A stretch of DNA of 4,182 bases, from the IMG/VR virus record IMGVR_UViG_2778261347_000020, one strand, 5' to 3'. Source of the DNA: a virus (lineage: Duplodnaviria > Heunggongvirae > Uroviricota > Caudoviricetes). Of the stretch, positions 1 through 4,182 are shown in pieces. The notes beneath the pieces were generated by a model, which made no database searches, was not told the DNA's origin, and saw only the letters and a program-made list of their open reading frames with translations. Within the stretch, counting starts at the first letter, position 1. The number at the start of each line of letters is the position of its first letter. A program made the position numbers and the translations under genes.

Positions 1-83
1 TCACCTATTGCGGATGGCAAAAACTCGATAAGGCCGTCACCGTTCTGGCGAAAAGCTGATTTTTCCGGCATCAATCCAGATAT

Positions 84-101
84 GGTGATCCCCATATCGG
101 G
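84..101. repeat. Direct repeat copy A (15-bp exact core gatccccatatcggg at 87..101; 17/18 match over 84..101) paired with 853..870
   Basis: Exact 15-mer seen at 87..101 and 856..870 on the same strand; chance of an exact 15-mer recurring in 4 kb is low. Confidence 0.8.
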
Positions 102-139
102 ATAATTACGAAATTTTCGCAGTTTAATAGGTGACCAGA

Positions 140-337
140 ATGACAGAAGCCGAAAATTATGTGCGTGTTGTTGCTGAGGTGATGCGCCGTGATGGTATCC
201 AGCTTAATGATGTGGATATGCGCAACATACGGATCCGCGTTCTTGAAATGCTGGCCTACCGTCGCCGCGTGCAGACGTACAGGGAAAAAGCAAAAATTAC
301 GTACCACTGGAAGAGGCAGGAGCGGTTACGGCGGTAA
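140..337 (+). CDS. Hypothetical small basic protein, 65 aa (MTEAENYVRVVAEVMRRDGIQLND...KRQERLRR); function unknown
   Basis: ATG at 140 preceded by SD-like AGGTGA (129..134) with 5-nt spacer; stop TAA 335..337; first ~45 codons use E. coli-preferred codons (cgt, cgc, ctg, gaa); Arg/Lys-rich C-terminus. The ORF track starts it at GTG 131; I prefer ATG 140 because of the SD spacing. No family recognised. Confidence 0.35.
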   Translation: MTEAENYVRVVAEVMRRDGIQLNDVDMRNIRIRVLEMLAYRRRVQTYREKAKITYHWKRQERLRR

Positions 338-342
338 CTGGT

Positions 343-369
343 TGAACTTAAAGCAAAGCGCAAAATTGC
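343..369. repeat. 27-bp direct repeat copy 1 (tgaacttaaagcaaagcgcaaaattgc)
   Basis: 26/27 identical to 562..588; begins 6 nt after the stop of the 140..337 ORF. Confidence 0.85.
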
Positions 370-561
370 GTTGGCTGGTGGGTGAGTTGCAGATCTGCAA
401 CTCGACCATGAAATTACGGAAACTACCCGTAGTTTGGGTAGTAAGAGTAACACCCAGATTTTGGGGCTTACTCGCGATACCCAAATAAAGGGTATCGGTG
501 GAAGAAATATCGTTTCTCATATGTGAGTACCGAGGGCGGAATTACGCCTTCGGTTACTCGC
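370..561 (+). other. Hairpin-rich 192-bp segment between the 27-bp direct repeats; candidate structured RNA or small cassette (function unknown)
   Basis: Four stem-loops by manual pairing: 384..403 (palindrome), 422..442 (7-bp stem ACTACCC/GGGTAGT, 7-nt loop), 475..497 (8-bp stem CGATACCC/GGGTATCG, 7-nt loop), 529..554 (10-bp stem with one G.U, 6-nt loop). Stems 2 and 3 share the TACCC...GGGTA arms. Strand of any transcript is not established. Confidence 0.3.
384..403. promoter_or_regulatory. 20-bp perfect palindrome gagttgcagatctgcaactc with central GATC; candidate dimeric protein-binding site or 8-bp stem / 4-nt loop hairpin
   Basis: Sequence equals its own reverse complement over 20 bp (checked base by base); centre is a Dam GATC site. 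Confidence 0.5.
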
Positions 562-588
562 TGAACTTAAAGCAAAGCGCAAATTTGC
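562..588. repeat. 27-bp direct repeat copy 2 (tgaacttaaagcaaagcgcaaatttgc), containing a perfect 10-bp palindrome gcaaatttgc (579..588)
   Basis: 26/27 identity to 343..369; single A/T difference makes the internal palindrome perfect in this copy. Confidence 0.85.
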
Positions 589-852
589 ACTCTGGCCTAA
601 CCCGTTGATATTTCCGGCAACCTCAATTTGAGGAGATCGGAAACATCACCCTTCAAATTCTGAATGGTCATAATGACCACGCAGACCATCAAGGCAACCA
701 CAACGAACATCGTTACGGTTGGAGCTTTTACCCCACTGGGGGAAAAGGTACGCACCTGAATCATCATTACCGTGATCAAGGGTATGTAAAGCCCACCAGC
801 CTGATTAACGTTTAACCGGAAAAAAATTCCGGTATGGGGGGAGTGGGTAGGT

Positions 853-870
853 GGGGATCCCCATATCGGG
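853..870. repeat. Direct repeat copy B (15-bp exact core 856..870) paired with 84..101
   Basis: Exact 15-mer gatccccatatcggg; flanks show weaker similarity (ttccgg ... tatgg ... core) suggesting a longer degenerate repeat unit of about 45 bp. Confidence 0.8.
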
Positions 871-932: not shown

Positions 933-989
933 TTGTTCGTGGTTGTTCGATATTGTTCGTGAAACGGTGTAGTTAATGGTGTAGTTAAT
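933..989. promoter_or_regulatory. Iteron-like direct repeats upstream of clpS: TTGTTCG x3 phased at exactly 10 bp (933..939, 943..949, 953..959) and tandem 12-mer GGTGTAGTTAAT x2 (966..977, 978..989)
   Basis: Seen directly in sequence; 10-bp phasing puts the copies on one helix face, typical of regulator binding arrays; embedded in an AT-rich stretch. Binding protein unknown. Confidence 0.35.
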
Positions 990-1052: not shown

Positions 1053-1061
1053 TGTTATAAA
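1053..1061 (+). promoter_or_regulatory. Candidate extended -10 element (TGtTATAAA) for clpS-clpA transcription
   Basis: TGn + TATAAA about 100 nt upstream of the clpS ATG; no good -35 (acceptable for extended -10 promoters). Purely sequence-based guess. Confidence 0.25.
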
Positions 1062-1162
1062 TGATAGTTATCTATCATGTGGAGTAGATTGGTCAGGCAA
1101 ATAAGCTCTTGTCAGCGGCAGGGCGTTCTGCCGATAACCGTAACCGAAGATGATAACTGACA

Positions 1163-4001: not shown

Positions 4002-4089
4002 GTTCACTGCCGTACAGGCAGCTTAGAAATCGACGGGGTGCGGTAAAACCTTTGCGAACGCGTTCACTGCCGTACAGACAGATAAAATG
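4002..4089 (+). CRISPR. Type I-F CRISPR mini-array: repeat 1 GTTCACTGCCGTACAGGCAGCTTAGAAA (4002..4029), 32-nt spacer (4030..4061), degenerate terminal repeat GTTCACTGCCGTACAGACAGATAAAATG (4062..4089)
   Basis: Repeat 1 matches the E. coli/Yersinia-subtype I-F 28-nt repeat as I recall it, including the CTGCC-GTACA-GGCAG hairpin bound by Cas6f; spacer length 32 is typical for I-F; second repeat matches the first 16 nt then degenerates. No cas genes in the window. Confidence 0.85.
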
Positions 4090-4091
4090 CG

Positions 4092-4120
4092 AAAAAAAAG
4101 CTCGCACTTTCGTACGAGCT
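4092..4120 (-). terminator. Rho-independent terminator for a minus-strand transcript entering from the right
   Basis: On the minus strand: stem GCTCG..CGAGC with inner 2 bp and a GAAA loop, followed by eight U (complement of A-run 4092..4099). Position fits the terminator of a tRNA gene whose 3' end would lie at about 4133. Confidence 0.6.
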
Positions 4121-4132
4121 CTTCTTTAAATA

Positions 4133-4146
4133 TGGCGGTGAGGGGG
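4133..4146 (-). other. 14-nt stub identical to the 3' end of tRNA-Ser(GGA) (minus strand CCCCCTCACCGCCA); rest of the tRNA absent; candidate att-site core / integration junction
   Basis: TGGCGGTGAGGGGG on + strand is the reverse complement of the acceptor 3' strand, discriminator and CCA of E. coli tRNA-Ser(GGA) as I recall it; the sequence after 4146 has no T-arm (no GTTCGAATC complement). 4134..4152 also folds as a hairpin GGCGGT-gaggggg-ACCGCC. Confidence 0.4.
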
Positions 4147-4182
4147 ACCGCCTGAAATAAATCTGACTTAATCCAGGGGTGT

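Follow-up and report, generated by a model that had tools for sequence, protein, structure and literature searches.

A terminal gene of enterobacterial PICIs, present as an N-terminally shortened 65-residue allele at the right end of an Escherichia coli phage satellite

The window, by which we mean the whole stretch of 4,182 nucleotides that was analysed, contains the right end of a phage satellite of the PICI type, about 9 kb in size, in Escherichia coli. Its positions 1–1160 are 100% identical in E. coli O157 strain AR-0427 and in two other genomes, and the identical island is annotated in NZ_CP044148 between cspD/yljB and clpS. The genes given there by RefSeq are those for a tyrosine integrase, a small HTH regulator, an Icd-like protein, a DUF4222 protein, a primase, TerS and a 307-aa capsid-like protein. 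The properties by which PICIs are recognised as elements are all found, namely an integrase, an AlpA-type regulator, a primase/replication gene, att sites of its own and a size within the class of about 9–15 kb, and lysis and tail genes are absent from the island as annotated in NZ_CP044148. Induction by a helper phage and subsequent transfer have been shown experimentally for the relatives EcCICFT073 and EcCIEDL933. When the window and the left junction were compared with the K-12 cspD-clpS spacer by BLAST, homology was seen to restart at 1057, and since 21 bp are common to both junctions, the window comprises the last ~1.05 kb of the island. Downstream of the island follow clpS (1163–1483) and then clpA.

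At the left junction of a strain identical to the window (L001, 9498–9875), the annotation gives cspD as a gene for a ‘cold shock domain-containing protein’ of only 174 nt, as against 225 nt in K-12, together with an overlapping hypothetical ORF. At the other end of the window, the clpA-serW interval contains two type I-F CRISPR repeats, one at 4002–4029 (Rfam CRISPR-DR4, 50 bits) and a degenerate one at 4062–4089 (20 bits), forming an orphan two-repeat array with one spacer. Positions 4136–4182 contain the 3' portion of tRNA-Ser (serW), which is encoded on the minus strand and truncated where the window stops (RefSeq, identical genome). Weak Rfam matches to MicC and to the Thr leader at 4083–4175 are the terminator hairpin beside serW and not those RNAs.

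Within the island portion, the features of which are collected in Table 1, the gene for the 307-aa major-capsid-like protein is followed by a short spacer and the ORF under study. Neither a promoter-like nor a terminator-like site was found between the two. A lambda-type cos site near the ORF was rejected as GGGCGGCGACCT is absent at up to three mismatches from the first 1100 nt of the window. No similarity to phage genomes was found for the non-coding region or for the protein.

Table 1. Features of the island portion of the window (positions are those of the window; strand left empty where none applies).
Feature	Position	Strand	Basis or remark
3' end of the satellite 307-aa major-capsid-like gene	1..59	+	RefSeq NZ_CP044148; PHROG major head protein matches
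26-bp palindrome, copy 1, CCAGATATGGTGATCCCCATATCGGG	76..101		Capsid-ORF spacer; inverted repeat I5, direct repeat D4 with 852-870
Shine-Dalgarno-like AGGTGA	129..134	+	5 nt before ATG; G131 is C in the full-length alleles L005 and L091
65-aa allele of the c1505/PHROG 1561 family	140..337	+	Sequence, PHROG profile, NCBI, dN/dS, AlphaFold2
GCCGAAA microhomology at the 84-nt deletion junction	149..155	+	Alignments with L005, L091, L002/L003
38-nt direct repeat, copy 1	332..369		Repeat family D2; overlaps the stop codon, begins with a degenerate IHF-like motif
Hairpin module, six stem-loops	373..550		Fold z-scores; occurrence counts
38-nt direct repeat, copy 2	551..588		Repeat family D2
Perfect IHF consensus TATCAACGGGTTA	598..610	-	0.19 matches expected per window
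Palindrome, copy 2	845..870		Right arm GGGGATCCCCATATCGGG intact, left arm degenerate
TTGTTCG three times at 10-bp phasing and GGTGTAGTTAAT twice	933..989		Sequence; repeat D11
attR core	1057..1077		21 bp common to both island junctions (BLAST against the K-12 cspD-clpS spacer)

The ORF begins with an ATG at 140–142 and ends with a TAA at 335–337, giving 65 codons. As the window contains 40 ORFs of at least 30 aa, its length alone is not significant. The first-pass annotation had described it as preceded by a correctly spaced Shine-Dalgarno sequence and as ending in a Lys/Arg-rich tail, and both descriptions stand: AGGTGA ends 5 nt ahead of the start codon, and the product carries the tail KAKITYHWKRQERLRR and has a pI of 10.8 with 11 of its 17 Lys/Arg residues within the last 28 positions. 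An in-frame GTG at 131 would lengthen the product to 68 aa; ATG 140 was taken as the start because the family alignments begin at MTEAE.

This family is a known one, contrary to the same annotation, which had left the ORF unrecognised and had proposed HMM and structure searches to place it. Such searches were successful in part, with a profile match in PHROG and no match in Pfam, in the PDB or at the level of fold. The product matches PHROG 1561, a 93-position profile of unannotated function, at E = 3.1e-33, residues 3–65 falling on profile positions 31–93. The same family includes c1505 of EcCICFT073, a protein of 93 aa for which orthologues are given only in PICIs and PICI-like elements and the function column is blank (Fillol-Salom et al., 2018, supplementary table). 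In related islands at the same chromosomal site as that of the window, the corresponding protein of 93 aa reads MTEAE-ILRLIRRVAGISQQADEQTTQPDSVTAE-NYVRVV.... A large protein database held 789 homologue clusters, nearly all of 93 aa and all labelled hypothetical, and the 37 representatives at 50% clustering mark the family as narrow. The exact 65-aa protein is already in NCBI (EKH51924.1), on 12 contigs, a variant differing at one residue is on 46 contigs, and the gene occurs in some form in at least 868 of 5426 complete genomes. Sequence searches of Pfam, NCBIfam, PADLOC and the PDB, with the single protein and with the profile, returned nothing significant, and for four family members the PADLOC anti-phage defence models gave no match at E ≤ 1. 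The ORF is thus a real gene but no new kind of gene, belonging to a family that is already catalogued and uncharacterised.

All 14 invariant columns of the family (L, N, D, I, R, R, L ... Y, W, K, E, R, L, R) are kept in the 65-aa protein. The full 93-aa architecture, consisting of an N-terminal helix, a linker and a two-helix core, is not, residues 6–33 being deleted. The position in the island is that of the family, as no other conserved ORF occurs between 337 and the att core. Compared with c1505 of EcCICFT073 (WP_000133413), the model Gram-negative PICI (Fillol-Salom et al., 2018, 2019), the window protein shows about 90% identity over the common 60 residues, has the same invariant core and tail residues and is likewise encoded by the last gene before attR, but it lacks residues 6–33. 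The surroundings differ, the TerS and 307-aa capsid module lying upstream of the window ORF and rppA with an inverted cos2 site upstream of c1505, and so do the integration sites, which are at cspD/clpS for the window island and next to phoQ for EcCICFT073. The cf-PICI EcCIEDL933 carries a 93-aa member in the same terminal position (WP_000133425), which unlike the window ORF is full length and resides in a capsid-forming PICI. That the ORF is a shortened copy within the c1505/PHROG 1561 family, with the history set out below, we hold to be very probable. A second family, PHROG 7271 (63 aa), matches the conserved core only, its positions 10–63 aligning with residues 38–93 of a full-length protein (L003) at E = 2.8e-8, and therefore core-only relatives exist; to the window protein itself this profile aligns weakly (E = 0.003).

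Selection on the reading frame was analysed with 87 homologous loci, mostly from IMG/VR, of which 86 are complete and one is cut by a contig end. The diversity was drawn from IMG/VR, since a scan of species-representative genomes gave a single locus, in Shigella. In none of the 86 complete copies is the frame disrupted (81 of 93 aa, three of 65 aa and one each of 96 and 97 aa). The dN/dS of the frame is 0.24 (84 gap-free loci; 56 distinct sequences), and among the 56 distinct gap-free sequences the numbers of variable sites at codon positions 1, 2 and 3 are 34, 29 and 61. Four of the five other frames gave dN/dS values of 1.25–1.69, and the fifth, which has its third positions in common with the sense frame, carries stops. 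Constraint is strongest in the core (residues 34–93, dN/dS 0.18) and weaker in the N-terminal part (0.43). The ORF family is therefore a genuine protein-coding frame under purifying selection. The first-pass annotation had allowed that the frame might prove broken in related genomes, or that the minus-strand frame 71..307 might be the conserved one; neither is the case, the antisense frame having a dN/dS of 1.28 against 0.24 for the plus frame.

The family is found only in enterobacterial PICIs, and its gene is the last before attR in at least five types of these, whatever packaging module precedes it. In the window the module consists of TerS and the 307-aa capsid. A second type has a protease-capsid fusion, to which a DUF1441 terminase-like gene may be added, and the third, represented by EcCICFT073, has a capsid gene, a decoration protein gene and, between two inverted lambda-type cosN sites, rppA. 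The fourth is the complete head and terminase module of EcCIEDL933, in which the gene starts 13 nt after terL, suggesting co-transcription with the packaging operon; the gap to an upstream terminase-type gene in other PICIs is 2 to 13 nt. The fifth, an unrelated ProQ/PerC module, precedes the most distant member (43% identical). The inverted cosN pair bracketing rppA, seen for example at 9166 (+) and 9925 (−) of L010, was also observed in about 40 other IMG/VR loci, and the second cosN of such EcCICFT073-type islands is ~75 nt upstream of the c1505-type gene.

AlphaFold2 predicted for the 93-aa protein a helix at residues 3–14, a disordered linker (17–29), a helix at 32–45 and a long helix at 52–84, with a pLDDT of 67. 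The model of the 65-aa allele consists of a helix (3–17), a loop, a helix (24–64) and the basic tail, at a mean pLDDT of 84.7, and the invariant tail Y-x-W-K-x-x-E-R-L-R is retained. Fold searches with the predicted models returned only generic helical hairpins. Several candidate identities were rejected. The protein is not an Rpp (redirecting phage packaging) protein, as neither the single protein nor the profile matched the solved RppA/RppC in the PDB, and EcCICFT073 has rppA (c1503) as a gene of its own, upstream of c1505. An excisionase fold (Xis, Vis/AlpA) is not seen either, the model being an all-helical hairpin and the Pfam families Phage_AlpA and HTH_17 giving no match; lambda Xis showed no similarity. 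BLASTP against a database of four sequences (lambda N, HK022 Nun, gpW and Xis) gave only E > 4. An RNA binder with an arginine-rich motif of the lambda N/Nun type was rejected because no motif similarity was seen and because the hairpin module described below is absent from 35 of 55 loci. CpmB and Ppi of the staphylococcal SaPIs, as well as lambda N and HK022 Nun, are small helical proteins that act through short conserved terminal peptides or arginine-rich helices. Their likeness to the window protein is one of functional analogy only, sequence and fold similarity being absent.

The history of the allele was read from alignments with full-length genes, the reference being L005 and L091, two complete genomes with the same TerS and capsid module, and also L002/L003. 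An in-frame deletion of 84 nt between two GCCGAAA repeats removed residues 6–33. With them went the N-terminal helix and the disordered linker; the start codon survived, as did the conserved core in its entirety. A further deletion of 7 nt took away the ancestral Shine-Dalgarno sequence GTGGAGA, which directly precedes the ATG in the full-length alleles, and a C-to-G substitution at 131, 9 nt upstream of the ATG, created AGGTGA. The ORF had at first been treated as a gene standing on its own; it is instead a deletion allele of a 93-aa protein, and in RefSeq the window copy carries a pseudogene flag, its N-terminus being absent. The short allele is rare, being present in about 8 of the 5426 complete genomes, and of the 11 complete genomes with the TerS and capsid module upstream, eight have the short and three the full-length form. 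Four distinct short alleles were found, with differing C-termini or downstream sequence, all in frame. One strain with the short allele, ERL06-2442 (L092, NZ_CP032801), carries a G-to-T change at the equivalent of window position 284, by which Glu49 becomes a stop and the conserved tail is lost. Even P0168, the homologue furthest removed, has kept the N-terminal helix that the deletion took away, and some family members (P0128, P0153) have an unrelated acidic N-terminus. Given these unrelated N-termini and the core-only relatives in PHROG 7271, the N-terminal segment looks exchangeable. The window copy is accordingly a rare, N-terminally deleted allele of uncertain activity.

Behind the ORF lies a spacer rich in DNA signals. 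The stop codon had been placed directly before a 27-bp direct repeat and a set of hairpins; repeat and hairpins are indeed there, but the repeat is 38 nt long and the stop lies inside its first copy. The two copies, at 332–369 and 551–588, are 89% identical, and the stretch 338–600 has an RNA-fold z-score of −7.9 on the plus and −9.0 on the minus strand. No Rfam family matches the hairpin module. It was found in 20 of the 55 family loci with enough downstream sequence, 38 to 522 nt past the stop, and in 665 of 5426 E. coli genomes, in none of which it is annotated; each of the 22 modules inspected is preceded by a family member. The family gene occurs without the module in EcCICFT073 and EcCIEDL933. 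The module has the look of an element inserted optionally into a mosaic spacer and is not obligatorily tied to the ORF; a structured RNA, an array of DNA palindromes and a single-strand initiation site are all conceivable.

The IHF site at 598–610 opens a non-coding stretch that is common to other PICIs. In EcCICFT073, three perfect IHF sites occur within 170 nt after c1505 (L088, 3653–3818), the first of them overlapping the stop codon, and in the window both 38-nt direct repeats open with degenerate versions of this motif. The palindrome in front of the ORF recurs further downstream, near the att arm, in a degenerate form, and at this second site L006 has a perfect palindrome, CCCGATATGGGGATCCCCATATCGGG. 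Neither copy is followed by a T-run, so that they look like protein-binding sites and not like terminators. The phased repeats at 933–989 are probable integrase arm-type sites, and the pair GGTGTAGT(T/C)AAT recurs near attR of EcCICFT073, which is at a different chromosomal site.

Published experiments on the relatives bear on the function. When the post-ori genes of EcCICFT073 were expressed singly, only c1503 (rppA) blocked lambda. The island is packaged in full-size capsids, and its marked derivative EcCICFT073 c1504-c1507::cat is transferred at ~1e6–1e7 TFU/ml and establishes itself in recipients; by its notation, and by analogy with c1498-c1501::cas9, we read this derivative as a replacement that removes c1505, and the donors also carry pJP2037. 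Since an island so marked is still mobilised, the c1505 family appears dispensable for induction, packaging, transfer and integration in the laboratory, which argues against a role as an excisionase or in packaging specificity. For EcCIEDL933, a mutation in ‘hypothetical gene 1792’ severely reduced cf-PICI transfer. We rejected these data as bearing on the family, on the basis of gene order and of the capsid being gene 1786. By this numbering, gene 1792 is a 60-aa ORF between the HNH gene and terS (L090, 5159–5341), and it lies where an HK97-type cos site is expected.

Taken together, the likely explanation is that the ORF is the terminal gene of a PICI, present here as a deletion allele, and that its family encodes an accessory modulator. 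The gene would be transcribed as the last cistron of the packaging (late) operon of the satellite after induction. Its helical-hairpin product would contact nucleic acid through the Arg/Lys-rich invariant tail Y-x-W-K-K-P-E-R-L-R-R, or dock with it on a conserved partner of the host or the PICI, and would thereby act as an accessory, non-essential modulator of the life cycle and not as a factor of packaging, excision or replication. Nucleic-acid binding by the basic tail is possible. The mechanism as a whole, an accessory modulation by the 65-aa/c1505 protein through this tail, we infer tentatively and consider somewhat unlikely in this particular form.

It is a distinct possibility, although not the reading we favour, that the window copy is a dead remnant, inactivated by the loss of residues 6–33 and of its native ribosome-binding site, the frame being still open because the event is recent. 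This would agree with the RefSeq pseudogene call, with the disappearance of the ancestral ribosome-binding site, with the nonsense codon at residue 49 in the sister strain ERL06-2442 and with the rarity of the short allele (about 8 of 5426 genomes, against at least 868 with the gene). The lost helix is moreover conserved throughout the family, in which the N-terminal part is still under purifying selection (dN/dS 0.43), and the c1505 region is dispensable for laboratory transfer if c1504-c1507::cat is read as above. The nature of the changes speaks for a gene that still functions: the deletion is in frame and spared the start codon, a substitution recreated a Shine-Dalgarno sequence at good spacing, and none of the four distinct short alleles is frameshifted. 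Most complete genomes with the TerS and capsid module (8 of 11) carry the short allele, the core alone is predicted to fold confidently in the 65-aa model, and natural precedents for an altered or missing N-terminus are provided by P0128 and P0153 and by the 63-aa core-only relatives of PHROG 7271. Whether the gene lies on the other strand altogether hardly needs to be considered. The minus-strand ORF 71..307 is of a type that was annotated as c1506 (145 aa) in the 2002 annotation of CFT073, and this antisense frame stays open, over 81–85 codons, in 60 of 60 distinct homologous sequences; yet its dN/dS of 1.28 against 0.24 for the sense frame, with variability highest at its first codon position, marks it as a by-product and not a gene, and current RefSeq annotations leave it out. 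Codon usage on the sense strand commonly leaves antisense frames of this register open, and to a gene at 71..307 we attach next to no credence.

Two further explanations assign the protein a more definite task. As a small, basic protein whose gene always adjoins attR, the later attP of the circularised island, and with IHF consensus sites starting at or just past the stop codon, it might be a recombination-directionality or packaging-specificity factor that acts on the att-proximal IHF-rich DNA and is needed for excision, integration or packaging; the frequent position of the gene directly after terminase-type genes would fit the latter. We regard this as very unlikely, because the island without c1504-c1507 is still packaged, transferred and established, because in published work AlpA and Int account for excision, and because in EcCICFT073 the cos sites and Rpp, upstream of the gene, explain packaging specificity. 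The predicted all-helical fold without a winged-helix or HTH match also stands against it, as does the near constancy of the protein across islands that differ in their att sites and packaging modules. The other explanation, put forward in the first-pass annotation, joins the protein and the repeat-flanked hairpin module in a protein-plus-RNA unit in which the basic tail binds structured RNA. In its favour are the adjacency of ORF and module, the arginine-rich tail, the exceptional structure of the 263-nt stretch (z = −7.9) and the presence of a family member upstream of all 22 modules inspected. The comparison of loci did not sustain it: 35 of the 55 family loci have no module, the offset varies from 38 to 522 nt where there is one, and the experimentally studied EcCICFT073 and EcCIEDL933 have the gene alone. 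Both strands fold, the minus strand even better (z = −9.0), as DNA palindromes would. Neither a promoter nor a terminator frames the module, no Rfam family matches it, and lambda N and HK022 Nun showed no significant similarity to the protein. A unit of this kind is thus highly improbable.

Returning to the likely explanation, that of a terminal PICI gene with an accessory role, the tidy small ORF with its good ribosome-binding site turned out to be real, and yet to be already catalogued and, as a truncated allele, called a pseudogene. Among PICIs that otherwise differ in having unrelated packaging modules, the gene of the 93-residue protein is the one constant at the right end. This constancy extends to the two best-studied E. 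coli islands, the family is under purifying selection, and, by our reading of the notation, its gene is missing from a marked derivative in common use. The short allele amounts to a domain-deletion mutant that nature has already made. On a broader view, which we consider unlikely, the c1505 family would be a universal backbone factor of enterobacterial PICIs, whose tail binds nucleic acid or captures a conserved host protein and so tunes a step that transfer assays in the laboratory would miss, with the N-terminal helix as an exchangeable specificity module and the core alone being sufficient. Were this true, the nucleic acid would be the IHF-rich att-proximal DNA or a structured transcript, the step so tuned would be establishment, maintenance, competition between satellites or host physiology, and the natural 65-aa alleles would show that the core alone suffices.
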